Assembly: GCA_965203125.1 (NCBI GenBank)
Contig: CBDBBL010000001.1
Span: 40,971 to 104,970 of the forward strand
Source of the DNA: Gammaproteobacteria bacterium
Lineage (GTDB): Bacteria; Pseudomonadota; Gammaproteobacteria; CBDBBL01
DNA: 64,000 nt
Direction of reading: 5' to 3'
Shown here: positions 5,128-64,000 of the stretch, piece after piece
Layout: each line of letters opens with the position of its first letter
Numbering within the stretch: position 1 is the first letter of the stretch
The notes under the pieces: model-generated
Databases searched by the model: none
What the model was told of the DNA's origin: nothing
The model's input: the letters and a program-made list of their open reading frames with translations, nothing else
Position numbers and translations under genes: made by a program

Positions 5128-5924
5128 AGACGAACCATAATCTATAACAATATAGAAGACGGCACGAAAGTGCTGGCATCAATTAATGCGACGCATCCAC
5201 GGGTGTCACCGAAAAGGTGGCACTCGGGCTTTGCCCGACCATTAACCCATGCGAGCTACGGGAGGAGACGCAGAAAGCAACGATTAAAAATCAGACAAAA
5301 ATAAAACGTGTCACACTGGTAAAAGTCCTAAGACAGCCAGCAGGTGATATCAGTCGTTTGTTGAGAGTACTGTGTATCCAGTACAGCGTTCTCTCGAACA
5401 CCAATATCGGGTGACAGTTTATGGAAGTTTTTGATTTGTGAACCTCGGGTGGTTCAGTTAAAATGCGATCATTCATTTAGCAACCTTTCTCGTTGTTATT
5501 TGATAGCGAGTCTGAGGTGTTTCAGCACCGAGGACTCGCGCCAATTTCATATCAGCGACGACCACTATAACAAAACAAAATAGCCGAAACAAATCTCTAT
5601 CTGTTTTGAAGTATGGTGTCGCCACCTACCATATTTTTTAAGCGATAACGCTGGTTACAATTAAGTGACGCAACCACCGCAAAGCAGGATCATCATCACT
5701 GTGTCGATGCGATAAGCCTCGAGGGTGTTGATGTGTGAGCTTTAGATTTTATAGATAGATTTAGATGGTGACCGAAAACTATTACTTTTGGCCATACTGG
5801 TTGTTTATCAATAACTCCTTGATTTATAATGATGGAGATCGAGTGATTTTAGAAATCTTGAGAGTCAAAACGACCCAATATTTGACATAGGTAAGATGAG
5901 GAAATTTAAAGCAGCGTAGGTATA

Positions 5925-6085
5925 TACCCATCACCATTCAAGAAACCGAGCTTTAACAAAATGAATTTTAGTGAAATTAGATTTAAAAAATCGAGTAATA
6001 GCAAGCCATTGCAAAAGTTTTTAAATGTCAATTTTGCAAAATCCATGAAGTTAAAGCTCGGTTTCTTGAATGGTGATGAGTATAT
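5925..6085. repeat. MITE-like element copy b (29-bp perfect terminal inverted repeat catcaccattcaagaaaccgagctttaac)
   Basis: The perfect inverted repeat spans 5927-5957 versus 6050-6083. The internal core gatttaaaaaa..gtaatagcaagccattgcaaaagttttt is shared with the copies at 13760 and 40380. Confidence 0.6.
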
Positions 6086-6087
6086 GT

Positions 6088-7152
6088 TTATAACCCCTTA
6101 GTAGGCCAATCTGTCATCAATACTTTCACCATCGTCGCTAACGGAATTGCGAAAAACACCCCCCAAAAACCCCACACTCCACCAAAAAACAACACAGCGA
6201 TAATAATAGCCAAGGGATGAAGTGACAACGCATTAGAAAATAACAGTGGCACCAGCACATTTGCATCCAAAATAATAATGCACCCATAAAGAATGAGCAA
6301 ATACAAGAAATGTGTACTCACTCCCCATTGGAATAGTGCAATCAATACAATCGGTATTGTCACTGCAACAGCACCAACATAAGGTACAATAACAGACAAA
6401 CCAACACAAACACCCAACAATACACTATAACGCAGACCCAACAGTGCAAAACCAGCCATAGAAACCACAGAGACAATCACAATTTCTACAACGCGCCCAC
6501 GCACATAAGCACTCAACTGCTTCATGAGTGTCTGCCATATAACCGTCAACTGTGAATGCCGCTCTGGCAGGAAGTGATGGAAATAGCGTCGAATCTTAAC
6601 TGAATCTTGCAACATAAATAGAACCATAATAGGAACCAAGACAGCGTAGACAAGCAAGCCAATTGCACTAGGAATTGTCGACAACGAGAATGATAAAATC
6701 GACTTCCCTGCTTGTGCAAAACTTGCACTCAAATCATTCACGATCGATTGCACCTGCTGGCTTGAAATCATATCTGCATGATTTGCAATCAATTGCTGAA
6801 ACCACTGTTGGAAATGCTGCCATACCAGAGGCATTTCTGTTGCCAAATTTGCAAGCTGTCTTAGCAATAAAGGAAATACCACAACGAACAAGGCAAGCAC
6901 TAAACTAATTACCATGACAAATACAGTCATAACTGCTAACCAACGAGACACTCTCATTCGCTGTAAAAAAAGCACAGCCCCATCTAACAAATAGGCAAGC
7001 ACAATACTTGCAATGACTGGAGCCAACATCTGCCCCCAATAATGAAAAAAAGCTAAGAAACCAAAACAGCATAATAGTAAAAAAACACTTTGCTGATCAG
7101 AAAGGTAGCGATTGAACCAAGCTTTAAAAATCGTTAACATGAAAAATACCAT
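6088..7152 (-). CDS. AI-2E family transporter (UPF0118/PerM-like membrane protein)
   Basis: A 354-aa polytopic membrane protein with the typical AI-2E organisation. Confidence 0.55.
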   Translation of the reverse strand: MVFFMLTIFKAWFNRYLSDQQSVFLLLCCFGFLAFFHYWGQMLAPVIASIVLAYLLDGAVLFLQRMRVSRWLAVMTVFVMVISLVLALFVVVFPLLLRQLANLATEMPLVWQHFQQWFQQLIANHADMISSQQVQSIVNDLSASFAQAGKSILSFSLSTIPSAIGLLVYAVLVPIMVLFMLQDSVKIRRYFHHFLPERHSQLTVIWQTLMKQLSAYVRGRVVEIVIVSVVSMAGFALLGLRYSVLLGVCVGLSVIVPYVGAVAVTIPIVLIALFQWGVSTHFLYLLILYGCIIILDANVLVPLLFSNALSLHPLAIIIAVLFFGGVWGFWGVFFAIPLATMVKVLMTDWPTKGL

Positions 7153-12484: not shown

Positions 12485-12638
12485 AATAATTCCAATTAAA
12501 AATGTGATATTTTAAACAAATAATTTTGTGTAGAATATGGCTTAAATACTTGAGTAATATCTGGCTATTGCGAAATTATTTAAGCTCTATTATGCCGAAA
12601 GTATGCATTTAAAATATCACATTTTCAATTGGAATTAT
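12485..12638. repeat. intergenic inverted-repeat element (32-bp TIR ataataattccaattaaaaatgtgatatttta) between pheS and pheT
   Basis: 12485-12516 is the reverse complement of 12607-12638 with one mismatch. The repeats flank about 90 bp of AT-rich sequence. Confidence 0.6.
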
Positions 12639-13681: not shown

Positions 13682-13714
13682 TCCTATGTCGTCATAATCA
13701 ATAGACCCAAACCA

Positions 13715-13865
13715 CTTGAAGACGCCGAAGCTTCAACAAGATAATTTTAAGCAGTATTGGATTTAAAAAAACTAAGTAATAGCAAGCTATTGCACAGTTT
13801 TTTAAAAGCTAATAATGCCAAAATTATGCAATTAAAGTCCAGTATCTTCAAGTAGTTTGGGTATA
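13715..13865. repeat. MITE-like element copy c (imperfect TIRs cttgaagacgccgaagcttcaac / ...gtatcttcaag)
   Basis: Its core ggatttaaaaaaactaagtaatagcaagctattgcacagtttttt is about 85% identical to 5978-6025. Confidence 0.5.
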
Positions 13866-14269
13866 ACCTCAAGATTCTAGCAAACTTTCCCATATTGCCC
13901 CAGTAAATCATTCATGCCGCCGTCAGCCTTGTGAAAACACAAGCAAGACAGTCTTTAAATCAAACATCTCATCTCGTTTCCGAATACACGCTAGAAGAAT
14001 CCATTTCTACAGATTACTGCAATTCAGCATTACATCATTTAAAAGCAAGCACGCATCATCACCCATTCCCAAACCACACAGTTGAACAGGTGATGGTACA
14101 ACTGGTTACAAACCAGCCTTTATTGCAAGCACAAACGTAATACTCACTATCGTTTTCATTCTCCGATCATGAGATTTGACTGTTTTCTATTCTAGCTTAA
14201 TTGGCAGTTTTCATGCTCATTTTATACTGGAAACATGAGACCCCTTTCATGCTCATTTTATATTGGACA

Positions 14270-14860
14270 ACACTTTATCTTGACATTAGCACTGTTTTTG
14301 GCACGATTGGCGGTAAGAATACGTATTTGAGCACTCAAAGCACCTCATTTCAACAAATTGCATTTGGAGCCGATTTCTATTCTGTGAAAAACTTCAAACT
14401 AGCTGCTGATGTGTTATATTTGACTGGGACAAATAACGTGGGGGTTAAAAAAACTGGTATTAGCGCTCTGGGTGAATTTGTCAATGCTGGTGGTGCGGTT
14501 GGTAACGTTGGAAGCTTAAAATGGCTATCAAATCCATCCATCCATTCAGAGCTGAAGAATTTATGTTTGACTCTATCTAAGAAGAAGACTACGATTTGCA
14601 GAGTTACAAAAAGATTTACCTTTCTAGGTTACTCATTATCTGAAAATGAAGGTCTGAGATTATCTAGAGAAACGCTAAGACCGCATAGAAATAAACTAAA
14701 GCGGCTTTATGAGCAAAAAAGATCTAACGATCTTTTGCGTGTTTATGTTATGCATTTTTGGCGCTGGGTGAAAAGTGGTGTTGATGATATCATTGACACC
14801 AATTACTTAAACAATGTCATGCTTTTATATATTAACTCCTATTTCAAATTAGCTAAATAA
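14270..14860 (+). pseudogene. deletion remnant fusing an OMP 5' fragment to the 3' third of the reverse transcriptase gene (ORF 14201..14860)
   Basis: 14270-14512 matches 17075-17320 in the OMP. 14513-14860 matches 18323-18668 (the RT C-terminus, with an extra atcc). The junction lies at cggttgg/cgttgg microhomology. The OMP signal peptide and the RT catalytic domain are both absent. Confidence 0.7.
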
Positions 14861-14911: not shown

Positions 14912-15466
14912 ATGACTAAACTTCTACTATTAGCCTTAACTCTCAACGCAATTGCACTATCTGTTTTTGCCACTCCCACTTGTAACATCTACCTTAAAGG
15001 TAACACCGCCACTGCTGCGTACTGGCAATGCCTAGCTAACGAAAATGGCTTAACGCCACAACAGGAACGTGCTATTACAGACAACTCTGCCAAGGTAGGC
15101 ATTACGGCCATCCAAGCAAGCCAAATCCAATCCAACCAAAATTTCACCTTCATGAACCTCAAATCTGTGATTACCCTTGCTACGGTTCGCACTGTTACCT
15201 TTATCATAAGCGACTCTTTAAGCGCGGCAGATAAAACTCAAGCCGTTGACGGCACAATTTCTGCTAACACACAGTACCTCTTCACATGCATCCCTAACGG
15301 CGTTACTGACCAAATCACTACTTCGAGCGGGAACCCTATCATGAATGTTTCGTTCGTTACCTCGCCCTTCTCCTTCACTTGGACTACTGACAGTTCCTCC
15401 GAACTAAACCTTATGACTAACTCCGGAACGCTCACTTGCTCCGCGAAACTGACAAGATATGGCTAA
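14912..15466 (+). CDS. small secreted pilin-like protein, a divergent paralogue of 18720..19220
   Basis: It has a signal peptide (MTKLLLLALTLNAIALSVFA). Its flank is conserved with 18669-18725. It shares the motif YLFTCIPNGVTD with the paralogue (YLLTCIPNGTTT), plus PFSFT and TC..LT. Confidence 0.5.
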   Translation: MTKLLLLALTLNAIALSVFATPTCNIYLKGNTATAAYWQCLANENGLTPQQERAITDNSAKVGITAIQASQIQSNQNFTFMNLKSVITLATVRTVTFIISDSLSAADKTQAVDGTISANTQYLFTCIPNGVTDQITTSSGNPIMNVSFVTSPFSFTWTTDSSSELNLMTNSGTLTCSAKLTRYG

Positions 15467-15494
15467 CACGGAAAAGTTTGATGAGATATGATAC

Positions 15495-16440
15495 TCTTTA
15501 GAAGAGATGAATATGATAGTGATTAGCTAAAGTGAAAGCATACAGTCAAGACCTGAGAGATCGTGTGATAAAGCAATACGAACAGGGAAATAGAAGCAAA
15601 GCAAAATTAGCACAGCTATTTCAATTGGGGACATCAACAGTAGATAGGTGGATCAAGAGATACAAATCGACAGGTGAATGCAGATCATTCCAAGGACTGG
15701 GTTGTGGACGTAAAACACGCTTTGATGATAAACAGGCTATCTTGTCTTATCTTAGTGAGAATGAAGATGCTAATGCTATTGAGATGCGGGATGATCTATT
15801 TCCAGGTTGCACTATGTCAACCTGGTATGACACTTTGGCTAGAATGGGAATAACCTATAAAAAAAAGAGCCAAAGTATAAGCAACGATCAGAAAAACAAC
15901 GAGCAAGCTTTCTGGATGAGCTGGGGAAAGCGCCCTTGAATAAGCGCATATATTTAGATGAAATGGGGATAGATGATAACATCGTTGTGCAGTATGGATG
16001 GGCACCTTTGGGAAAACGTAGTTATGCTGAACAGTCTGGCTGTAAAAAAGAGCGCCTGAGTGTTGTAGCAGCTTATCAATGGAATGATAAAAAATTACTC
16101 AGCCCTTTTGAATTTTCTGGTCGAATGGATAGCGCTTTATTTTCAGGGTGGTTTGAAAATGTATTATGCCCTGAATTACAGCAAGGTCAGGTGATTATTA
16201 TGGATAACGCAACTTTCCACAAAAGTTCTGAGCTACACGAAATTGCAGAGAAATATGGCTGTCGAATTTTATTTCTTCCAGACTATTCTCCAGACTTAAA
16301 CACCATAGAGAAGGTATGGGCTAATGTGAAAGGAAGATTCAGAAAGATCATTAAATTAGCTGACAATTTTCAAGATGCTATCACTCAAGCTTTCAATCAA
16401 ACTTTCCCGTGTTAGCTATAGTTCCTACAACATCACTAAA
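15495..16440 (+). mobile_element. IS630/Tc1-mariner family insertion sequence (orfA 15532..15939 HTH; orfB 15936..16415 DDE; split frame)
   Basis: OrfA has an HTH (TSTVDRWIKRYKSTGE). OrfB contains DEMG...IIMDNATFHKS...DYSPDLNTIEKVWANVK, which matches the IS630 DDE core. Confidence 0.7.
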
Positions 16441-16957: not shown

Positions 16958-17593
16958 GTGATGATGAATTTTAAATTAAAGACCTTACTGATATCTGCAT
17001 GTGTTTTAAGTGTCGCAGCATGTTATGCTGATTCTCTAACAGCAAATATTTGGACTAGCTCTAAAATAAAACCTTATCTTGACATTAGTACTGGTTTTGG
17101 CACGATTGGCGGTAAGAATACGTATTTGAGCACTCAAAACACCTCATTTCAACAAATTGCATTTGGAGCCGATTTCTATTCTGTGAAAAACTTCAAACTA
17201 GCTGCTGATGTGTTATATTTGACTGGGATAAATAACGTGGGGGTTAAAAAAACTGGTATTAGCGCTCCGGGTGAATTTGTCAACGCTGGTGGTGCGGTTG
17301 GTGTTGAGGGAGGCATAACAACTCCGTCATATGAACATTTTAACCTGAACATGAAGTTAGGAGTTATAGTGCAACGGTTATCACCAGGGAGTAGCGCGAC
17401 TGCTAACCCAAAGACCACTTTTCAACCAATTGCTCAAATTAACATTAATAGGTTCATTGCCGATAATACAAGCTTAGGATTTGGATACTTAATATCTTTT
17501 CCAAGCCATCATATCAGTGTAGATAGCCAAGACAATATAAAAGGATCATTGCGCATCAGCGCTGGGATGATAACATTAAATCACTACTTTTAA
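16958..17593 (+). CDS. small outer-membrane beta-barrel protein (C-terminal ...TLNHYF)
   Basis: A signal peptide plus amphipathic beta strands with a terminal aromatic residue. It is a paralogue of 4354..5127. Confidence 0.55.
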   Translation: MMMNFKLKTLLISACVLSVAACYADSLTANIWTSSKIKPYLDISTGFGTIGGKNTYLSTQNTSFQQIAFGADFYSVKNFKLAADVLYLTGINNVGVKKTGISAPGEFVNAGGAVGVEGGITTPSYEHFNLNMKLGVIVQRLSPGSSATANPKTTFQPIAQININRFIADNTSLGFGYLISFPSHHISVDSQDNIKGSLRISAGMITLNHYF

Positions 17594-17594
17594 T

Positions 17595-18668
17595 ATGATA
17601 TCTCAGAGTAAAGAGAGAAATATAATAAGTCAATTAGCATCTACCCAGAAGCTTCATGAGAGTTATTTGCTTTTAAGAAAAAAGAGGACAACAAAGAACA
17701 ACATAGCATCTCAACATGATGACTTTTGGGCGCTAAGCTTAGCGTGGGATACAATTAAAAAAGATACGAGGATATCCTTGCAAAATGGTGATTATCAAAT
17801 CTCACCATTGAAATTATACACTAAAGGCGAGCATTTGCTTTCGAAATGGGATAGCTTAGACTGGATAATTCTGAAATCTTTGTCCACACAATTAAAAGGA
17901 ATTCTTTTAGCCCCATTTGTATCTCACGCTAATGTGTATAGTATATCTGGAGACAATAAGCAAAGCGGCATCAAAAAATGTTTGCGAGCTGTTTCCAATA
18001 AACTAAATAACAAAGCAGCTAATTTTGTTTTCAAAACTGATATAAAAGATTTTTACCAAAGCATTGACCCGAAAATATTAATGAATAAATTAAAACTTCA
18101 TATTCAGGATACACGAGTTATTAACTTACTAGAACAATATACATCACGTATTGAAGATTTTAATGGAGAGTACCGCAATTGCACTGGGTTGCCAAAAGGA
18201 TGTCCATTGGCACCAGTGCTGGCAAATTTTTATTTGTTAAGTTTGGATAAGGCATGCAACACCCCAGGTATTTTTTATATACGATATATGGATGATTTTT
18301 TAATTATAACCGCAAAACGTTGGAAGCTTAAAATGGCTATCAAATCCATCCATTCAGAGCTGAAGAATTTATGTTTGACTCTATCTAAGAAGAAGACTAC
18401 GATTTGCAGAGTTACAAAAAGATTTACCTTTCTAGGTTACTCATTATCTGAAAATGAAGGTCTGAGATTATCTAGAGAAACGCTAAAACGGCATAGAAAT
18501 AAACTAAAGCGGCTTTATGAGCAAAAAAGATCTAACGATCTTTTGCGTGTTTATGTTATGCATTTTTGGCGCTGGGTGAAAAGTGGTGTTGATGATATCA
18601 TTGACACCAATTACTTAAACAATGTCATGCTTTTATATATTAACTCCTATTTCAAATTAGCTAAATAA
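17595..18668 (+). CDS. standalone reverse transcriptase (357 aa; RT motifs 1-7 plus a short thumb), class unassigned
   Basis: It has FKTDIKDFYQSID (motif 2), GLPKGCPLAPVLANFYL (motif 4), YIRYMDDFLIIT (the catalytic YxDD box, here YMDD) and FTFLGYSL (motif 7). It starts 1 nt after the OMP stop codon. Confidence 0.8.
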   Translation: MISQSKERNIISQLASTQKLHESYLLLRKKRTTKNNIASQHDDFWALSLAWDTIKKDTRISLQNGDYQISPLKLYTKGEHLLSKWDSLDWIILKSLSTQLKGILLAPFVSHANVYSISGDNKQSGIKKCLRAVSNKLNNKAANFVFKTDIKDFYQSIDPKILMNKLKLHIQDTRVINLLEQYTSRIEDFNGEYRNCTGLPKGCPLAPVLANFYLLSLDKACNTPGIFYIRYMDDFLIITAKRWKLKMAIKSIHSELKNLCLTLSKKKTTICRVTKRFTFLGYSLSENEGLRLSRETLKRHRNKLKRLYEQKRSNDLLRVYVMHFWRWVKSGVDDIIDTNYLNNVMLLYINSYFKLAK

Positions 18669-39309: not shown

Positions 39310-40122
39310 CTATCCAGCTTCTTTTTTATACAACTCAATCAACTGTTGAGAAATACTGATAGAATGCAATCGTTTCGGTAAATTATCTAATCTAAACCAT
39401 TGCGCATCTACAATTTCATCGCCATCCACAGCAATCTCTCCTTTGTCATAATCGGCATGAAAACCCAGCATCAAGGAGTCAGGAAATGGCCATGGTTGTG
39501 AAACAAGATAACGTAAATTCTTCACATACAATCCAACTTCTTCGTAAACCTCGCGATGCACCGCCTCTTCGATCGTCTCTCCTGGTTCAACAAAGCCTGC
39601 TAGAGTGCCATAATTTTGAGTCTTCACATGCGTTGACTGTGCCAATAACACCTCATCTCCTTTTCTGACCAACACGATAATAGCTGGTGAAATACGGGGA
39701 AAGAAAATTTGATCACAAGACTGACAAATCAACGCACGCTCATCCAGCTTATCCCTCAACGGTTGTGCACAAGACCCACAATAACGATGTGTTAGGCGCC
39801 AGTGGTTCAAGTGACATGCCAGCACACCCAAGGAGCCAAACAGGTCGACCTGCTCACACCAAAGTTGCTTCAGTGACTTACACACAAACGTTTCATTTAA
39901 TTGACATTGCTCACTAGATAATGGATCAGGCAATAAATAGCGTTTTCCGTCCGACTCTGCAAAACAATAGAAACTATCACAAGACAACGCATGCTTCACA
40001 TCTTGGTAGCAAATCAGCTCCCCTACCTGGTTAACATAAAGCGCCTGCTGCTTGAAAATAAATACATAATCTAGCCTATCTGGATGAGCAACCAGATAAT
40101 GTGTCATTTTTAAATTATCCAT
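39310..40122 (-). CDS. nudC: NAD(+) diphosphatase (NADH pyrophosphatase) NudC
   Basis: A C4 zinc ribbon plus a Nudix box GFVEPGETIEEAVHREVYEEVGL. Confidence 0.8.
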   Translation of the reverse strand: MDNLKMTHYLVAHPDRLDYVFIFKQQALYVNQVGELICYQDVKHALSCDSFYCFAESDGKRYLLPDPLSSEQCQLNETFVCKSLKQLWCEQVDLFGSLGVLACHLNHWRLTHRYCGSCAQPLRDKLDERALICQSCDQIFFPRISPAIIVLVRKGDEVLLAQSTHVKTQNYGTLAGFVEPGETIEEAVHREVYEEVGLYVKNLRYLVSQPWPFPDSLMLGFHADYDKGEIAVDGDEIVDAQWFRLDNLPKRLHSISISQQLIELYKKEAG

Positions 40123-40209
40123 AAAAACCCATCTATATTGTTAAGAAAAACGCACAAGAGATAACATGCCATGATAACATCTATAACTTGCAATACTCAA
40201 AAACCTTTT

Positions 40210-40605
40210 CTACAATCTCGACATCTTCAGGGCGGGGTGAAAGTCCCCACCGGCGGTAATTCAACCGTATACACATCGCACTTGCATGAGTATCGTTGAT
40301 CAGCCCGCGAGCGATGATTTATACCCAAATTACTTGAAGACGTCGGACTTTAACGGCATGAGCTCGGCAGAATACAAATCTAAAAGTTTTCCCAATAGCG
40401 GTGCTATTGCTCAACCTTTTAAATCTGATTCTGCTCAAGCTCATTATGTTAAAGCCTCGGCGTCTTCAAGTAATTTAAGTATAGATAATTTCAAGTCATT
40501 GCAGATCTGGTGCATACCCAACTAGAAATCAAAATCTTCAGTTGGATTGAGTATAATTCCAGAGCCGACGGTTATAGTCCGGATGGAAGAAGATAACGAA
40601 ATGGT
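40210..40605 (+). ncRNA. FMN riboswitch (RFN element) upstream of ribD, carrying an insertion of about 135 nt in the variable loop
   Basis: The 5' half is tcttcagggcggggtgaaagtccccaccggcggtaa...agcccgcgagcg. The 3' half is ttggattgagtataattccagagccgacggttatagtccggatggaagaaga. P1 is tcttc/gaaga. All of these are hallmark conserved segments of the FMN riboswitch. Confidence 0.85.
40334..40467. repeat. MITE-like element copy d inside the FMN riboswitch (TIRs cttgaagacgtcggactttaac / gttaaagcctcggcgtcttcaag)
   Basis: A terminal inverted repeat of about 22 bp. The internal core is in reverse orientation relative to the copies at 5978 and 13760. Confidence 0.6.
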
Positions 40606-40701
40606 AATGGCTATCAAGCTTAGTGCTTTATTGGCATATTATCTTACGGTTTCGTCTCAACCAAAGTCATGCCCTGGACTACAAATGAATAGCTAGGGAT
40701 T

Positions 40702-41772
40702 ATGACACAACATCTACAACACATGACAAGGGCACTCAAGCTTGCCGAACGCGGTCGTTACCATGTCTCTCCAAATCCTATGGTAGGCTGTGTCATCGTG
40801 AAACAGGATCAAATTATTAGTCAAGGCTGGCACACGCATTATGGTGGCGATCATGCGGAAATCATGGCACTCAAAGCAATGCCCTCCCATCTAAAAGACG
40901 CAACCATGTATCTCACCTTAGAACCTTGCGTTCACCACGGGAAAACGCCTCCATGTATTGATCAAATCATTGCTGCAAATTTCCATAAAGTCTATATCGC
41001 TTGCCTAGATCAGAATCCCAAAGTCAAAGGTAAAGGTGTTGAACAACTCAAAGAATCAGGCGTTCAGGTTCATGTTGGATTGTGCGAGGGAAGCGCATGC
41101 AAACTGAATGAGACCTTCTTTCACTATATGAAAACCAAACGTCCTTTTGTGATAGCTAAATGGGCGATGTCATTGGACGGACAAATGCAAACTCACCCCA
41201 CCGACTCACGTATTATCAGCAATCAATCAACCCAACAATTAACACATAGATTACGCCACCAAGTGGACGCGATTTTAATTGGAAGAAAAACTGCTAACAT
41301 AGACAACCCAAAATTGACTGTAAGAGATCGAAGAATTTCAGCAAAAGAGCAGCCTCTTCGCATTGTATTAGATACTCAAGGATCATTGCCAACAAATTTA
41401 GCGATATTTACCGACAAACACCCAGAAAAAACATGGGTCATCACGACAACTCGCACAAAAGAATCTTGGAGAAACAAACTGATCTCTCAAGGTATCACCG
41501 TGATCATAAATCCTGTTGATTCTGACGATTACTTTGATCTTCCTGCTCTGCTCTATCAACTCGGACAACAACAAATTTCAAGTCTATTAATTGAAGGAGG
41601 TCGATTTACTCATCAAGCGTTTCTACAAGCCAACTTAATTAATAAAGTACACACCTTTATTGCACCTACAATCATCAATCCTTTCAATACAAAGCAACCC
41701 CTATACGATACACAGCTACACCAAGCTGGAGATAATGCTTATTTTGAAGGCTATCTACACCAAAATACTTGA
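40702..41772 (+). CDS. ribD: bifunctional riboflavin biosynthesis deaminase/reductase RibD
   Basis: A CMP/dCMP deaminase zinc motif (HAEIMAL...PCVHHGKTPPC) plus a reductase domain. Confidence 0.9.
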   Translation: MTQHLQHMTRALKLAERGRYHVSPNPMVGCVIVKQDQIISQGWHTHYGGDHAEIMALKAMPSHLKDATMYLTLEPCVHHGKTPPCIDQIIAANFHKVYIACLDQNPKVKGKGVEQLKESGVQVHVGLCEGSACKLNETFFHYMKTKRPFVIAKWAMSLDGQMQTHPTDSRIISNQSTQQLTHRLRHQVDAILIGRKTANIDNPKLTVRDRRISAKEQPLRIVLDTQGSLPTNLAIFTDKHPEKTWVITTTRTKESWRNKLISQGITVIINPVDSDDYFDLPALLYQLGQQQISSLLIEGGRFTHQAFLQANLINKVHTFIAPTIINPFNTKQPLYDTQLHQAGDNAYFEGYLHQNT

Positions 41773-41794
41773 AGATATATACAGGAGAATCAAT

Positions 41795-42391
41795 ATGTTT
41801 AGCGGTATTGTTGAAACCATGGGGGAGGTCATTGATATCATTCACAACAATGATATATTACAACTCACTGTCAAACCAACCATTCAGTTAGAAGCAATTC
41901 AAACTGGCGATAGCATTGCAGTTAATGGTGTCTGTCTAACCGTAGTAATACAAACCTCGACTTATTTTACAACCGAAATCATCACAGAAACACAACGCTT
42001 AACAAACTTAGGAAACCTAACACTTGGCAGTCAAGTCAACTTAGAACGTGCAATTACCTGCCAAACAAGAATAGGTGGACATCTAGTACAAGGACATATC
42101 GATGGAGTAGCAACAATCCATCAAATCAGGCAAGCAAGTAGTAGTCAAATCATCCTGTTTAAGGCACCGAGTACTATTACAGATTATTTAATTTATAAAG
42201 GGTTTGTCACAATCGATGGCATGAGTCTAACGATAGCACACTGTGATAAACAAACTTTCACTGTCCATTTTATTCCACACACGCAAAACCAGACCATCGT
42301 AAAATACTATCAAGTTGGTGACAGCATTAATATCGAAGTAGACATGACTGCCAAGTATATCGAAAAATTCCTACAAAGAGACGCCTCATGA
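41795..42391 (+). CDS. ribE: riboflavin synthase alpha subunit; start at the internal ATG 41795
   Basis: Begins MFSGIVETMGEV...; two lumazine-binding repeats. Confidence 0.85.
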   Translation: MFSGIVETMGEVIDIIHNNDILQLTVKPTIQLEAIQTGDSIAVNGVCLTVVIQTSTYFTTEIITETQRLTNLGNLTLGSQVNLERAITCQTRIGGHLVQGHIDGVATIHQIRQASSSQIILFKAPSTITDYLIYKGFVTIDGMSLTIAHCDKQTFTVHFIPHTQNQTIVKYYQVGDSINIEVDMTAKYIEKFLQRDAS

Positions 42392-43665
42392 CAAATTTCA
42401 AAAACATACATCAAGCATTCAACACGCTTTCTCAGGGAAAAATGATCTTGTTAATTGATGATGACGATCGTGAAAATGAAGGTGACTTAGTCATCGCGGC
42501 AGAATATGCAGATACAGCGGCTATTAATTTTATGGCACAATATGGTCGAGGACTGATCTGTTTAAGCATGACACCACAACAAGTCAGGAAACTGCAATTA
42601 CCCATGATGACACCACATAATCAAAACAACTCAGGACAAGCTAACTTATCAACACCATTTACCCACTCAATTGAAGCAAAAGTTGGGGTAACAACAGGCA
42701 TTAGTGCAGCAGATAGAGCAAGAACTGTTGCGGCTGCAATTTCAGAAAACAGTACACACCACGACATATCGTCTCCAGGTCATATTTTTCCTTTACGCGC
42801 CCACCCACATGGAGTTCTTGGTAGGGCAGGCCATACTGAAGCGAGCGTTGATTTGGCACGTTTAGCAAAATTGACCCCAGCAGCAGTAATTTGTGAAGTT
42901 ATGAATAAAGATGGTAGCATGGCACGTGAAAAGGCACTGAAAGCATTTGCCAACAAACACCACTTGCCCATCGTGCATATCCGTGAATTAATTGAATACC
43001 GTCTCTTTCATGAAAATTGGGTCACACTGGAAAGTAGCACGACATTACCCACTAAAGAACATGGTAACTTCACCCTCCACGCCTTTTGCAATCAACTAGA
43101 CAACCACACCCATATTGCACTACAAAAAGGCAACTTTACTTCTAAAGAACCTACACTGACTAGGTTACATTCATCTTGTATCACAGGTGACGTCTTTCAA
43201 TCATTGCGTTGTGACTGCGGCGACCAATTAGCTCAAGCAATGCAACTTATACAAGAAAACCAACATGGAATCATTCTATATCTCAACCAAGAAGGTCGGG
43301 GGATTGGGCTCGTGGAAAAAATAAAAGCATATGCTCTGCAAGAAGAAGGAATGAACACAGTTGAAGCCAACCAGGCACTTGGGTTCAAAGCAGATTTAAG
43401 AAATTATGCAGTCGCAGCACATATTTTAAAAACACTCGGCACTACAAACATTAATTTACTCACAAACAATCCCAATAAGATCAGCGCACTACAATCATAC
43501 GGAATTATTGTCGGCAGTCACACCCCACTCATAACACAACCTAACCCACATAACATTGCTTACTTATCCACTAAGCGTGATCAACTCAAGCACTACTTAC
43601 CTAAATCACTTAAAGGAGAACCTCATGAAAACCATACAGGCTCAACCCACTCAAAGCCCACCTAA
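42388..43665 (+). CDS. ribBA: bifunctional 3,4-dihydroxy-2-butanone-4-phosphate synthase / GTP cyclohydrolase II
   Basis: A DHBP synthase N-domain (RENEGDLV) and a GCHII C-domain (CxxGDVFQSLRCDCG). Confidence 0.9.
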   Translation: MTNFKNIHQAFNTLSQGKMILLIDDDDRENEGDLVIAAEYADTAAINFMAQYGRGLICLSMTPQQVRKLQLPMMTPHNQNNSGQANLSTPFTHSIEAKVGVTTGISAADRARTVAAAISENSTHHDISSPGHIFPLRAHPHGVLGRAGHTEASVDLARLAKLTPAAVICEVMNKDGSMAREKALKAFANKHHLPIVHIRELIEYRLFHENWVTLESSTTLPTKEHGNFTLHAFCNQLDNHTHIALQKGNFTSKEPTLTRLHSSCITGDVFQSLRCDCGDQLAQAMQLIQENQHGIILYLNQEGRGIGLVEKIKAYALQEEGMNTVEANQALGFKADLRNYAVAAHILKTLGTTNINLLTNNPNKISALQSYGIIVGSHTPLITQPNPHNIAYLSTKRDQLKHYLPKSLKGEPHENHTGSTHSKPT

Positions 43666-44119
43666 AGTTGCTATTATTGTAAGTAACTTTAATCTAGACA
43701 TCACCAAAGAATTACTTTCAGGAGGGCTAAGTTATCTTGAGAACCATAATATCCCCAGCACAAACATTCAGGTCATTCACGTTCCTGGTGCTATCGAAAT
43801 CCCACTGATTGCTCAAAAACTGGCAAAGCGCCATCACTATCATGCCATCATCTGTTTTGGAGCTATCATTCGAGGTGAAACCACTCATTATGATTTAGTA
43901 TGCAACCAAGTCAGTCATGGCTGCCAGCAAGTCATGCTTACCTATGAAACACCCATTGTGTTTGGTATATTGACTACAGAAAATAGCAAACAAGCATATG
44001 ATCGGCTGGGTGGGCAACATGGACACAAAGGTAAAGATGCCGCAAAAACCGCATTAGCCATGATTTCCATTTCCCAACAAATTAACGAAACAACTCCCCT
44101 AAAAACACAGGAGGTTTAG
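43625..44119 (+). CDS. ribH: 6,7-dimethyl-8-ribityllumazine synthase; likely start at MKTIQAQ
   Basis: Contains AIIVSNFN...HVPGAIEIPL. Confidence 0.85.
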   Translation: MKTIQAQPTQSPPKVAIIVSNFNLDITKELLSGGLSYLENHNIPSTNIQVIHVPGAIEIPLIAQKLAKRHHYHAIICFGAIIRGETTHYDLVCNQVSHGCQQVMLTYETPIVFGILTTENSKQAYDRLGGQHGHKGKDAAKTALAMISISQQINETTPLKTQEV

Positions 44120-45023: not shown

Positions 45024-45138
45024 AGATTCCCTTCCTAGCTATACTCAATAACCAATTCAATTGAAAATGCCGAGTTTTCAACTGAATTGGCTATAAAGTC
45101 GAAAAATAATCAGAAATTATACGCGATCACCTCAACAC

Positions 45139-53551: not shown

Positions 53552-53674
53552 ATGCACAAGAAATAGCGTTTTTCTGTGCGTATCAATAAAACATGCACAA
53601 GAAATAGCGTTTTTCTGTGCATATCAATAAAACATGCACAAGAAATGGCATTTTTCTGTGCATATCAATAAAAC
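53552..53674. repeat. three tandem 41-bp repeats, each containing the palindrome GCACAAGAAA-n7-TTTCTGTGC
   Basis: The units are 53552-53592, 53593-53633 and 53634-53674. They are 38/41 or more identical. The last unit overlaps the Fic stop codon. Confidence 0.8.
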
Positions 53675-59939: not shown

Positions 59940-61133
59940 TTACTGTCTTTGACGCCTTAAAAAAGCAGGAATATCTAAATATTCTTCATCTTTCTCAGAT
60001 TTAGAATCTCCAGCCACTGGCGCATTAAATTGTGCATCTGTTTTTTGACGCATTACAGTAGGACGCTCTAGCTGATGATAGTCCATCGTTCCATCACGTT
60101 TCATGCTTTCCATCACTGTCGATTTTTCATCATCACACGACCCAAGCCCAGTCACAACAACAGTGACTCTAAGCTCATCCGTCATATCTGAATCAATCAC
60201 TGTTCCCACAACAACAGTCGCATTATCTGAAGTAAAGTTTTTCACTGTATCGCCAACGACCTCGAACTCACCAATCGCCATATCTAGGCCAGCAGTAATA
60301 TTCACCAGCACACCTTTTGCCCCGTTGAGATCAATATCTTCCAACAATGGACTGGCAATCGCTGCTTCAGCTGCTTCTTTAGCACGATTCTCTCCTGACG
60401 CACGCCCAGTACCCATCATCGCCATACCCATCTCACTCATCACAGTACGCACGTCTGCAAAATCGACATTAATCAACCCTGGGCGAGTAATCAGCTCAGC
60501 AATACCCTGAACAGCGCCTAGTAAAACATCATTTGCCGCTTTAAACGCATGTAATAGGCTAACATTTTTACCTAAAACAGATAGTAACTTATTGTTTGGG
60601 ATCGTAATGAGTGAATCCACATGTTTAGACAATGCAGCAATGCCTTCTTCAGCTGCATTATTACGCTTCTTTCCTTCGAATCCGAATGGCTTGGTTACCA
60701 CCGCAACGGTTAGAATACCCATTTCTTTAGCAATCTCTGCAACCACTGGCGCAGCACCCGTTCCTGTGCCACCACCCATACCTGCAGTAATAAACACCAT
60801 ATCAGTTCCGCCAAGCACTTCTTTGATACGCTCACGGTCTTCTTCTGCAGCTTGACGACCGATATCAGGATTTGCACCGGCACCCAAGCCTTTGGTTATT
60901 TGTTCCCCAAGCTGAATAACGGTACGCGCGTTCGATTTTTTGAGTGCCTGTATATCAGTATTAGCACAAATAAACTCCACACCATCAATTTGCTCTTCAA
61001 TCATGTGTTCAGTGGCGTTACCACCACCGCCACCTACACCGATGACTTTAATAATCGCGTTTTGATTATGAACATCACTTAACTCAAACATAGCTTTTGC
61101 TCCAGCATCACCTTGATGCAATTGTATCAACAT
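59940..61133 (-). CDS. ftsZ: cell division GTPase FtsZ
   Basis: [13 protein letters not shown] and [13 protein letters not shown] tubulin signatures. Confidence 0.95.
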
Positions 61134-61280
61134 ATTAATTGAAAATACGATCTTTTAAGTTCATGCTTTTGGCACAATACCATACAAATAGTTTCACAAT
61201 AGCTAGCTATTGCCCAAATTTTTGTATGGCATTCTACTCAAAATCATTTTCTTAAAACCTCACATTTTCAACTGACATGT

Positions 61281-62528
61281 CTATAAATTCGCTTTAAACC
61301 AGCCTTTCATTTTATCCCAAAGGCCTTTCATATTATCCGCGCTACCCTCTGATCTCACATACCCTTGATCAGAATGACTCGCCGCATGACCATATAGTAA
61401 CAACCCTACTGCTGTTGCATACTTTGGGCTACCCATCACATCAGTAAGTCCTTTAACATGCTGTGGCAATCCTAATCGTACTGGCAAATCAAATATATCT
61501 TCCGCCAATTCAATGCCACCGGCAATCTGTGAGGCACCACCTGTTAACACAATACCTGAAGAAACCAAATGCTCAAAACCACTGCGTCTTAACTCTGCTT
61601 TCACTAATGCAAACAATTCTTCATAACGCGCGCTGACCACATCAACTAATAACTGCGCAGACACTTTACTTTCACCACGCCCACCAACTGATTCAACAGC
61701 CACTTCATCAGGACTACTTGAGGACAATTCACGTCGCACGCTGGCATGCTTCAACTTAACTTTTTCAGCTTGTTTCGTCGGCGTGCGTAACGCAACAGCC
61801 AAATCATTGGTCACTTGATCCCCTGCTATAGGAATCACCGCAGTGTGTCGAATAGCCCCATCAGTAAAGATTGCGATATCAGTCGTACCGCCACCAATAT
61901 CAACTAAACAAACACCCAGCTCTTTTTCATCCTCAGTCAGCACCGCATAACTCGACGCCAATTGCTCAAGTATCACATCAGCAACATGCAGACCACATTT
62001 ACGCACACACTTAACAATATTTTGAGCAGCACTCACAGCACCAGAGACAATATGAACTTTGGCTTCTAAACGAATCCCCGACATCCCTACAGGTTCACGA
62101 ATGCCTTCTTGGCTATCAATGATAAATTCCTGAGGTAACACATGTAAAATTTTCTGATCAGCAGGAATCGCAACTGCACGTGCGGCATCAATAACACGCT
62201 CGACATCCGTTGGTCGCACTTCACTATCTCGAATAGCAACAATACCATGAGAATTTAAACTTTGAATATGACTGCCTGCAATCCCTGTATATGCAGCATT
62301 AATTTCACACCCTGCCATCAACTCAGCTTCTTCTAACGCCCGCTGAATCGAGTTCACAGTTGACTCTATGTTAACAACAACGCCACGCTTTAATCCACGA
62401 GATGGGTGCGACCCAATTCCAACCACATGAACATCACCTGATTCATCAACTTCTCCAACCAGCACAACGATTTTTGTTGTACCAATATCAACACCAACAA
62501 TGAGTTGCTTGTCTAATTTTTTCGCCAT
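61281..62528 (-). CDS. ftsA: cell division protein FtsA; likely start at MAKKLDKQ
   Basis: An actin-like ATPase (VGVDIGTTKIVVLVGEV). Confidence 0.9.
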   Translation of the reverse strand: MAKKLDKQLIVGVDIGTTKIVVLVGEVDESGDVHVVGIGSHPSRGLKRGVVVNIESTVNSIQRALEEAELMAGCEINAAYTGIAGSHIQSLNSHGIVAIRDSEVRPTDVERVIDAARAVAIPADQKILHVLPQEFIIDSQEGIREPVGMSGIRLEAKVHIVSGAVSAAQNIVKCVRKCGLHVADVILEQLASSYAVLTEDEKELGVCLVDIGGGTTDIAIFTDGAIRHTAVIPIAGDQVTNDLAVALRTPTKQAEKVKLKHASVRRELSSSSPDEVAVESVGGRGESKVSAQLLVDVVSARYEELFALVKAELRRSGFEHLVSSGIVLTGGASQIAGGIELAEDIFDLPVRLGLPQHVKGLTDVMGSPKYATAVGLLLYGHAASHSDQGYVRSEGSADNMKGLWDKMKGWFKANL

Positions 62529-63778: not shown

Positions 63779-64000
63779 AAAGCTATCTCATCCATACCGA
63801 GTGACACCTGTCACATTTTCAATCTGATTCTGCTCAAACTCATTATGTGAAATCCCCGCCATCTATAACAAGCATATTAACATGCTATCACAACATAAAA
63901 AATGAAGACATTCTTCTAAAAAAACTTGGTGGTTGTAATAAACAAGCATCATCAATCACTGATTGACGATGCAACGATGCCTCTTTTGAGGAAAAATCTT

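Follow-up and report, generated by a model that had tools for sequence, protein, structure and literature searches.

A probable double MITE insertion in peripheral loops of an FMN riboswitch preceding a gammaproteobacterial riboflavin operon

A stretch of 64,000 nucleotides (nt) from a Gammaproteobacteria bacterium (contig CBDBBL010000001.1, positions 40,971 to 104,970; hereafter the window, to whose own numbering all coordinates refer) carries the riboflavin operon ribD-ribE-ribBA-ribH, preceded by a flavin mononucleotide (FMN) riboswitch. The class of riboswitch (Rfam RF00050) is a familiar one, found here in an unusual state: it has been invaded twice, at permissive loops, and is invisible to standard annotation. 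Judged from sequence and predicted structure, it was probably struck by two members of one TA-targeting superfamily of MITEs (miniature inverted-repeat transposable elements), one of 160 nt in the terminal loop of helix P4 (L4) and one of 39 nt in the T-loop that caps helix P5 (L5), and on balance it would still regulate the operon.

The aptamer extends for 372 nt on the + strand, from the 5' to the 3' strand of P1 (40223-40594), as delimited by two partial RF00050 matches, the minimum free energy (MFE) fold and a profile match to the excised sequence. Its identity as an FMN riboswitch is hardly in doubt. An Rfam scan of the whole window at the gathering threshold returned tRNA only and no FMN riboswitch, the natural sequence not reaching the 66.2 bits set for RF00050. 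A permissive local scan detects two separate matches to this model. The 5' half (40219-40345, 32.4 bits, E 1.5e-5) spans P1, P2 and P3, and the 3' half (40483-40598, 34.1 bits, E 5.3e-6) spans P5, P6 and the 3' strand of P1. The split and sub-threshold match is presumably due to the poor tolerance of the model for long inserts, here of 178 and 43 nt. A profile hidden Markov model (HMM) was built, sequence only, from the aptamers of seven relatives and applied to natural and excised variants. The two halves are recognized by this profile with E values of 3e-16 and 1.5e-12, so that the conserved halves described in the initial annotation are indeed present. On the natural sequence the profile match is again split (47.8 + 35.9 bits). 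Excision of the L4 element alone gives 56.6 + 35.9 bits, and excision of both inserts yields a single match over profile positions 5-149 with 102.8 bits (E 4e-33). The initial annotation had proposed RF00050 as a check, with failure to span both halves counting against a single riboswitch. The model does fail to span them; the restoration of one match upon excision makes that failure uninformative.

The secondary structure leads to the same conclusion. The unconstrained MFE fold of the natural 506-nt leader (40215-40720) recovers P1 to P6, with the two halves joined through P1, P4 and P5 and both insertions forming closed hairpins. Pair probabilities for the six helices lie between 0.55 and 0.98 in the natural leader, and a consensus fold with relatives agrees. 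P1 is formed by AUCUUC (40223-28) and GAAGAU (40589-94; p=0.97). The P2 hairpin (GGGG/CCCC, 40234-40248, p=0.97) carries the T-loop L2 UGAAAGU, and P3 (GCGG 40253-56 with CCGC 40305-08) includes a native P3a; both are placed by RF00050 and the alignment, P3 also by the consensus fold. P3/P3a (40253-40308) is 15 nt longer than its counterpart in Aquicella siphonis (locus L014), with compensatory pairs in P3a. The P4 strands GCGAUGA (40311-40317) and UCAUUGC (40496-40502) pair at seven of seven positions, one of them G-U, with a mean probability of 0.98 (range for P4 0.90-0.98), and the GC...GC ends of this helix are invariant among the relatives. There follows the junction J4/5, AGA (40503-40505), invariant in relatives and window alike. 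P5 consists of UCUGG (40506-40510) and CCAGA (40559-40563), which pair across the second insertion (p=0.73) and are supported by the consensus fold. A compensatory change is seen in this helix, C40507-G40562 replacing the U-A of four aligned relatives. The remaining segment (40564-40588) holds J5/6 (GCCGA), P6 (CGG 40569-71 with CCG 40579-81; pair probability 0.55) and J6/1 (GAUGGAA), the same as the relatives' invariant columns.

T-loops cap P2, P3 and P5. In L5 the nucleotides U1, G2 and C3 (40511-40513) and A4, A5, U6 and U7 (40555-40558) fit the U-G-N-R-A-N-N loop of the relatives, giving U-G-C-(helix)-A-A-U-U closed by two G-C pairs. A different reading of the 3' half returned by cmscan, with CCAACU/AGUUGG as P4 and UUGAG/CCAGA as P5, was rejected: that P5 pairs at only three of five positions. 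It is also contradicted because UCUGG pairs at five of five, follows the conserved GCAGA and carries the compensatory change. In sum, the aptamer has every testable feature of an FMN riboswitch, save the Rfam score of the uninterrupted natural sequence.

Comparison with relatives sets the native size of this RNA. Seven were available, Aquicella siphonis and six uncultured organisms, with RibD proteins 50-55% identical to that of the window and an RF00050 aptamer before ribD. All seven aptamers are compact (142-167 nt, 113-123 bits) and lack both inserts, as against 372 nt in the window; the long spacer is therefore not native. Relatives sharing it, which the initial annotation had named as grounds for doubt, were not seen. 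When the doubly excised sequence was aligned with four of the relatives, 88 of the 101 columns invariant in those four were kept. The 13 that differ are found in P3a, P4 and the flanks, together with the compensatory P5 pair, and every junction column is unchanged: AGGGC (J1/2), ACCGG (J2/3), GCGA (J3/4), AGA (J4/5), GCCGAC (J5/6) and GGAUG..AGA (J6/1) are identical to the relatives wherever these are invariant. P3a and P4 are naturally variable in length among the relatives. With a RibD identity of only 50-55%, these organisms are distant as an empty-site comparison. No same-species or sister genome was found in the databases searched, and a RibD search of genome contigs gave relatives of only 33-41% identity. 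The GC content of the window is 40.5%, and the best named RibD neighbours are A. siphonis and uncultured Gammaproteobacteria, which suggests that the source may be a deep Legionellales-like lineage.

The larger insertion is practically certain to be a MITE. The strands of P4 are separated by 178 nt. GCGAUGA comes straight after the conserved 3' strand of P3 and J3/4 (AGCCCGCGA), and UCAUUGC is followed by AGA-UCUGG-UG, corresponding to GCAGAUUUGGUG in the relatives (the 3' end of P4, J4/5 and the 5' strand of P5). Since the P4 strands and their conserved neighbours flank it, the element is located in the P4 terminal loop. The initial annotation had a stem extruded from a variable P3/P4 region; the long hairpin from a peripheral region is supported, and its site can now be narrowed to L4. 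The roughly 230-nt gap noted earlier is likewise real as a long spacer, but it comprises two inserts rather than one, 178 nt in P4 and 43 nt in the P5 loop.

Alignment of the family copies places the element at 40322-40481 (+ strand, 160 nt), in place of the 40334-40467 (about 135 nt) first proposed. As in other bacterial MITEs there are terminal inverted repeats (TACCCAAATTACTTGAAGACG ... CGTCTTCAAGTAATTTAAGTA), and a putative target-site duplication, TA, is present on the left (40320-40321) and right (40482-40483), as identified from the alignment of copies and from metagenome loci. The inverted repeat recognized between the aptamer halves in the initial annotation is genuine: it is 77% self-reverse-complementary over 176 nt, and its RNA fold (-75 kcal/mol, z = -10) was equalled in stability by none of 200 shuffles. 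The element with its TA flanks (40320-40483) is predicted to fold at -71.0 kcal/mol into an RNA hairpin of about 65 base pairs (bp; stem p=0.95-0.96). The sole open reading frame (ORF) that overlaps it (40286-40525, 79 amino acids) also extends through riboswitch sequence. Among the palindromes of the family this copy is one of the best preserved, at -71 compared with -36 to -53 kcal/mol for three other copies, and may be a recent arrival. Selection for a hairpin in the transcribed strand was considered and rejected. The opposite strand folds better (-89.7 versus -71.0 kcal/mol), so there is no sign of selection on the L4 hairpin itself. The predicted empty site is GCGATGATT-TA-GATAATTTCAAGTCATTGC.

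The smaller insertion is likely a mini-MITE of the same terminal-repeat superfamily. UCUGG (40506-10) pairs with CCAGA (40559-63), and P5 therefore encloses 43 extra nucleotides (40513-40555); the 3' strand of P4, J4/5 and the 5' strand of P5 (40496-40512) sit between the two insertions. This extra segment was first delimited against the riboswitch family and only afterwards tested against the MITE family. With a profile of the window's own copies it matches the terminus, and 0 of 3000 shuffles and 1 of 3000 random 43-mers from the window scored as well. With an HMM of 11 metagenomic mini-MITEs the match is end-to-end, profile positions 1-42 corresponding to 40553-40516; as high a score was reached by 3 shuffles and 5 genomic 43-mers, of 3000 each. 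The element so defined (40515-40553, 39 nt) reads TACTCAATCCAACTGAAGATTTTGATTTCTAGTTGGGTA on its minus strand, a typical metagenomic mini reading TACCCAAACCACTTGAAGATGCGTGTTTCAGGTAGCTTGGGTA. Its flanks are TA (40554-55) and, in degenerate form, CA (40513-14), and it resembles a 54-nt mini at 45042-45095, with which it shares the terminus TACTCAAT. In the RNA it is predicted to form a hairpin, 'P5a', from AUAC/GUAU plus CCAACU/AGUUGG, placed between positions 3 and 4 of the T-loop, equivalent to the place of P3a in the P3 T-loop. Compared with the metagenomic consensus, about one quarter of the positions in the element differ, and the surrounding aptamer has stayed the same. This may be a weak hint that selection acted once the element was in place, weak because copies of the family are 25-30% apart from one another and the divergence may predate the insertion. 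For this site the predicted empty sequence is GATCTGGTG-TA-ATTCCAGAGCC.

That these are mobile sequences is supported by the distribution of the family. Aligned in both orientations, the rib copy and those at 13702-13868 and 5920-6085 share the ends TACCCAAAttACTTGAAGA ... TCTTCAAGTaaTTTrrGTA, and TA is present on both sides of all three. The copies named in the initial annotation were recovered, those at 5925 and 13715 as the full-length elements 5920-6085 (with the variant termini TACTCATC/TACCCATC) and 13702-13868, and that at 1455 as a partial copy (1455-1509). A profile of the three full copies, searched across the window with nhmmer, also revealed two diverged copies (61131-61286, E 6e-14; 12511-12631, E 7e-8), a fragment at 63815-63865 and the 54-nt palindromic mini derivative (matched at 45048-45092). 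In total there are five full or near-full copies and at least three fragments, hence at least 8 in 64 kb, and all are intergenic.

The family is also well represented in environmental metagenomes. A scan with a single terminus (TACCCAAAYYACTTGAAGAYR) detected at least 120 loci; a pattern requiring both terminal repeats 105-135 nt apart had 0 matches. Among the matches listed, the superfamily terminus TACCCAAAYYACTTGAAGATGC occurs in metagenome contigs (L018-L137) from JGI, ENA and Tara records, and all elements end in a matching inverted terminus. Their sizes are 33-52, 99, 142-170, 194-205, about 262 and about 310 (to 312) nt, and TA directly adjoins them on the left in 116 of 126 cases and on the right in 59 of 70. 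The TA, itself palindromic, could be part of the terminal repeat instead of a target-site duplication. By its termini, the rib copy belongs to a large TA-duplicating MITE superfamily (TA | TACCCAAAYYACTTGAAGA ...). A dominant class of about 262 nt (e.g., L020:7526-7787, L052 and L099) has conserved internal sequence in many contigs. Rfam gave no family at threshold on 12 metagenome loci scanned, and no paper describing the MITE family or its terminus was found in a literature search of incomplete coverage, which is absence of evidence only.

Duplication of TA is typical of IS630/Tc1-mariner transposition. The window contains one IS630-family element (15458-16420), with ORFs for HTH_Tnp_IS630 (15532-15939) and DDE_3 (15936-16415), which a frameshift presumably joins. 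TA and terminal repeats of 25 nt (TATGGCTAACACGGAAAAGTTTGAT; TATGGCTAACACGG...) mark each of its ends. As a parent of the MITE the element was rejected, since its terminal repeats do not match. This element lies between near-identical segments (14269-14835 and 17068-18643), next to which there is a reverse-transcriptase ORF (17595-18668, RVT_1); the arrangement may be that of a retroelement split or duplicated by the insertion sequence.

Two Rfam families bear some resemblance to the MITE. The consensus of V_AS5 (RF02818, Vibrio antisense RNA 5) ends in CCAAACaacuuGaaGuuGCagg ... ccuGCagCuuCaaguA, similar to the termini of the window family, and the model matches the rib copy (40319-40484, +) with 24.3 bits against a gathering score of 96; neither the other window copies nor the metagenomic copies scanned gave a match. 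WsnRNA46 of Wolbachia scores 32 bits (gathering score 65) on the copy at 5909-6097 (-). Membership in either was rejected, the scores being far below threshold. As a lead only, V_AS5 may itself be a MITE of shared origin.

Downstream of the aptamer the leader appears organized for control of translation. No intrinsic terminator is predicted in the riboflavin leader. In the MFE fold a predicted sequestor hairpin (40666-40707, +) pairs GUCAUGCCCUGG (40666-77) with CUAGGGAUUAUGAC (40693-707), burying the Shine-Dalgarno (SD) sequence and the ribD start. Within it, the SD is part of CUAGGG (40693-98), the pairing partner of a GCCCUGG box (40671-77), and the ribD AUG (40702-04) is paired too. The same box has a second complement in UUCAGGGC (40226-33), where P1 of the aptamer passes into J1-2, and when this pairing is imposed on the fold the SD is released (-158 versus -169 kcal/mol). 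The relatives (loci L011-L017) have a GCCCUG box 20-45 nt before the ribD start (CCCUG and GCCUG variants in two) that is complementary to the SD region as well as to the aptamer UCAGGGC, suggesting a sequestor/anti-sequestor design common to the lineage. When FMN is bound and P1 is closed, the box would pair with the SD region and hide the ribD start; without FMN it could pair instead with UUCAGGGC of the open aptamer. This switching mechanism is inferred from conservation and complementarity, and the output of the riboswitch is most likely translational. Translation attenuation has long been proposed for RFN elements of Gram-negative bacteria, and the design of this leader fits.

How an aptamer could accommodate 160 and 39 foreign nucleotides is suggested by the elements themselves. 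Each is predicted to fold onto itself in RNA, so that its TA-flanked ends would close on one another. Because TA is self-complementary and the terminal repeats pair from their ends, an insertion closes on itself and the native loop nucleotides are regained on both sides. The native strands of P4 and P5 would thus be rejoined, and the six-helix FMN-binding junction could still form. Prior structural work predicts both sites to be permissive. FMN is bound by the crystallised aptamers, which consist of two strands with an open P4 loop, and on folding L4 comes to be exposed to solvent (PMC3201879); for L5, where tolerance is plausible, the description of the T-loop allows an intervening helix (PMC2258182). 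The presence of both strikes at permissive sites may reflect either survival of tolerated insertions or chance.

A related system is the two-piece FMN aptamer of Fusobacterium nucleatum (Serganov 2009; Vicens 2011, PMC3201879), in which continuity of the P4 loop is likewise dispensable and the halves join via P1 and P4. Its open L4 was engineered, whereas the L4 of the window ends in a natural hairpin of about 65 bp. The uninterrupted RF00050 aptamers of A. siphonis and the six uncultured relatives share with the window the six-helix junction, the conserved junction sequences, the T-loops L2, L3 and L5, the position before a ribD operon and the SD-sequestering platform with its GCCCUG box; they differ in length and in having no MITEs in L4 and L5, and it is the window sequence that fails the gathering score and matches only as two halves. 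The closest precedents are repeats in other structured leaders and RNAs. In the pneumococcal trp leader a BOX element is found between two T-box riboswitches, and RNA-seq suggests that regulation survives (PMC3049150). This too is a MITE-like repeat co-transcribed in a riboswitch-bearing leader, but it separates two complete riboswitches and is not within an aptamer. A Rickettsia palindromic element is inserted in the transfer-messenger RNA (tmRNA) gene of R. bellii (PMC1458961), again a palindromic mobile element in a structured-RNA gene, though of another family, in another RNA and with no ligand sensing. Correia, ERIC and similar MITEs (PMC10969869) resemble the window family in their terminal repeats, short target duplication, intergenic multi-copy occurrence, co-transcription as hairpins and possible RNase III processing; the termini of the window family (TACCCAAAYYACTTGAAGA) are different. 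A MITE within the aptamer of a riboswitch was not found described in the literature covered, which was incomplete, so this too is absence of evidence only.

Several observations weigh against a switch that still works. Prediction puts the anti-sequestor fold about 10 kcal/mol above the closed fold in free energy, and the insertions add about 200 nt between the anti-sequestor segment (40226-33) and the GCCCUGG box. L5 docks with L3 (PMC3201879), and for that reason a P5a helix emerging from L5 could disturb the contact. RNase III is likely to accept as substrate a perfect duplex, here of about 65 bp, placed in a 5' leader. The RibD protein search returned nothing more than 55% identical and the RibD cluster has one member, leaving no closer relative by which to date the insertions, and no transposase with matching terminal repeats is present within the 64-kb window. 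The natural sequence also fails the Rfam gathering score, by a wide margin. This last point, together with the tertiary contact of L5 (PMC3201879), would suit a relic, in which one or both insertions have disabled sensing or switching because the RNA misfolds, loses the L3-L5 contact or becomes kinetically uncoupled, leaving the rib operon constitutive or permanently damped by the sequestor. An intact core would then mean only that there has been too little time for decay, and a recent inactivation would indeed leave such a core; the L4 copy, as a well-preserved palindrome, is compatible with recent arrival, and the window is rich in mobile DNA. For the L4 insertion sequence alone cannot separate the tolerated from the not-yet-decayed. 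The relic is nevertheless judged unlikely, if far from negligible, since the insertions occupy two positions where tolerance is predicted and not the junctions, P1, P2 or P6, and since the junction nucleotides, the compensatory P5 pair and the box of the expression platform are all intact. A weak further argument against the relic is that the L5 element is about one quarter diverged, with its left TA now CA, in an aptamer that is unchanged around it; the element may have diverged before it inserted.

Processing of the leader is a further possibility, though an improbable one as the principal account. RNase III would cut the duplex of the L4 MITE, giving either a two-piece aptamer or a 5'-monophosphorylated ribD mRNA of altered stability, and the MITE would affect the level of expression rather than ligand sensing. 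The hairpin is long and near-perfect, Correia-element transcripts are cut by RNase III and ERIC affects mRNA decay (PMC10969869), and FMN aptamers divided at L4 into two strands work in vitro (PMC3201879). After such a cut, only P1 (6 bp) and P4 (7-9 bp) would hold the halves together in trans. Cleavage could moreover occur whether the switch works or is dead, and thus modifies the other readings without replacing them. It is very improbable, finally, that the extra sequence was never mobile, whether P4 and P5 expanded natively in this lineage or the assembly is at fault. The natural length variation of P3a and P4 and the lack of any relative closer than 50-55% RibD identity leave some room for this. 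For L4 it is already contradicted by recurrence of the 160-nt element at unrelated intergenic sites of the window; the termini are found TA-flanked in at least 120 metagenome loci, none of the seven relatives has either insert, and a misassembly would not put complementary P4 strands on either side of a repeat.

A regulating, twice-struck riboswitch seems the probable description. The case is a natural insertion-tolerance experiment, the strikes having occurred where crystallography (open L4) and comparative analysis (the T-loop position) predict tolerance. It also offers a testable route from selfish DNA to variable expansion helices. A stronger version is possible but doubtful: the aptamer may sense FMN with both elements in place, the L5 mini-MITE serving as a 'P5a' that mirrors P3a, and such insertions may be a source of peripheral helices. 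Were this true, TA-targeting MITEs in AU-rich terminal loops and T-loops would be a route to the variable peripheral helices of structured RNAs, and homology searches would systematically overlook RNAs that are invaded but working. The case also matters for annotation. A standard Rfam scan reports no riboswitch here and the operon would be called unregulated, though the switch looks complete; split half-matches flanking a repeat may mark a class of annotation false negatives. The search has also exposed a large MITE superfamily in environmental metagenomes.

At the locus, a divergent NUDIX/NudC-like gene (39310-40122, minus strand) is followed by the FMN riboswitch (40219-40598, +) and ribD. 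Riboflavin genes directly downstream are expected of an RF00050 leader, and the regulated operon (40702-44119, +), defined by ORFs and Pfam domains, consists of ribD as its first gene (40702-41772), ribE (41795-42391), ribBA (42388-43665) and ribH (within 43556-44119). A promoter-like site, TTGCAA-17-TACAAT (40188-40216, +), is a consensus match only; from it the transcript would start just 5' of P1. Inside both insertions neither a promoter nor an intrinsic terminator is predicted on the + strand.

A solo sequence resembling the MITE terminus, TACACCAAAATACTTGAAGATATATA, is found at 41756-41781; by eye it agrees with the family terminus at about 19 of 21 positions, and its profile E value is weak on its own (0.24). 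It overlaps the end of ribD, whose final codons and TGA stop (41770-72) it provides. After a further 22 nt come the SD and start of ribE; in relatives ribD and ribE overlap or abut. The 9-mer ACTTGAAGA has three occurrences on the + strand of the window, one of them at this site. The solo terminus would be a third strike of the MITE family in the rib operon.

The window contains other repeats as well. Between 20900 and 30400 there are three large paralogous genes (21128-23599, 23911-26196 and 27642-29582 plus 29654-30271) with 11-14 internal repeat units of period 165-189 nt and flanks that are 90-99% identical; they look like a repeat-protein family. At 53552-53674, in the intergenic space between two minus-strand genes, three 41-nt units (ATGCACAAGAAATAGCGTTTTTCTGTGCGTATCAATAAAAC) are arranged in tandem, each with an inverted repeat.

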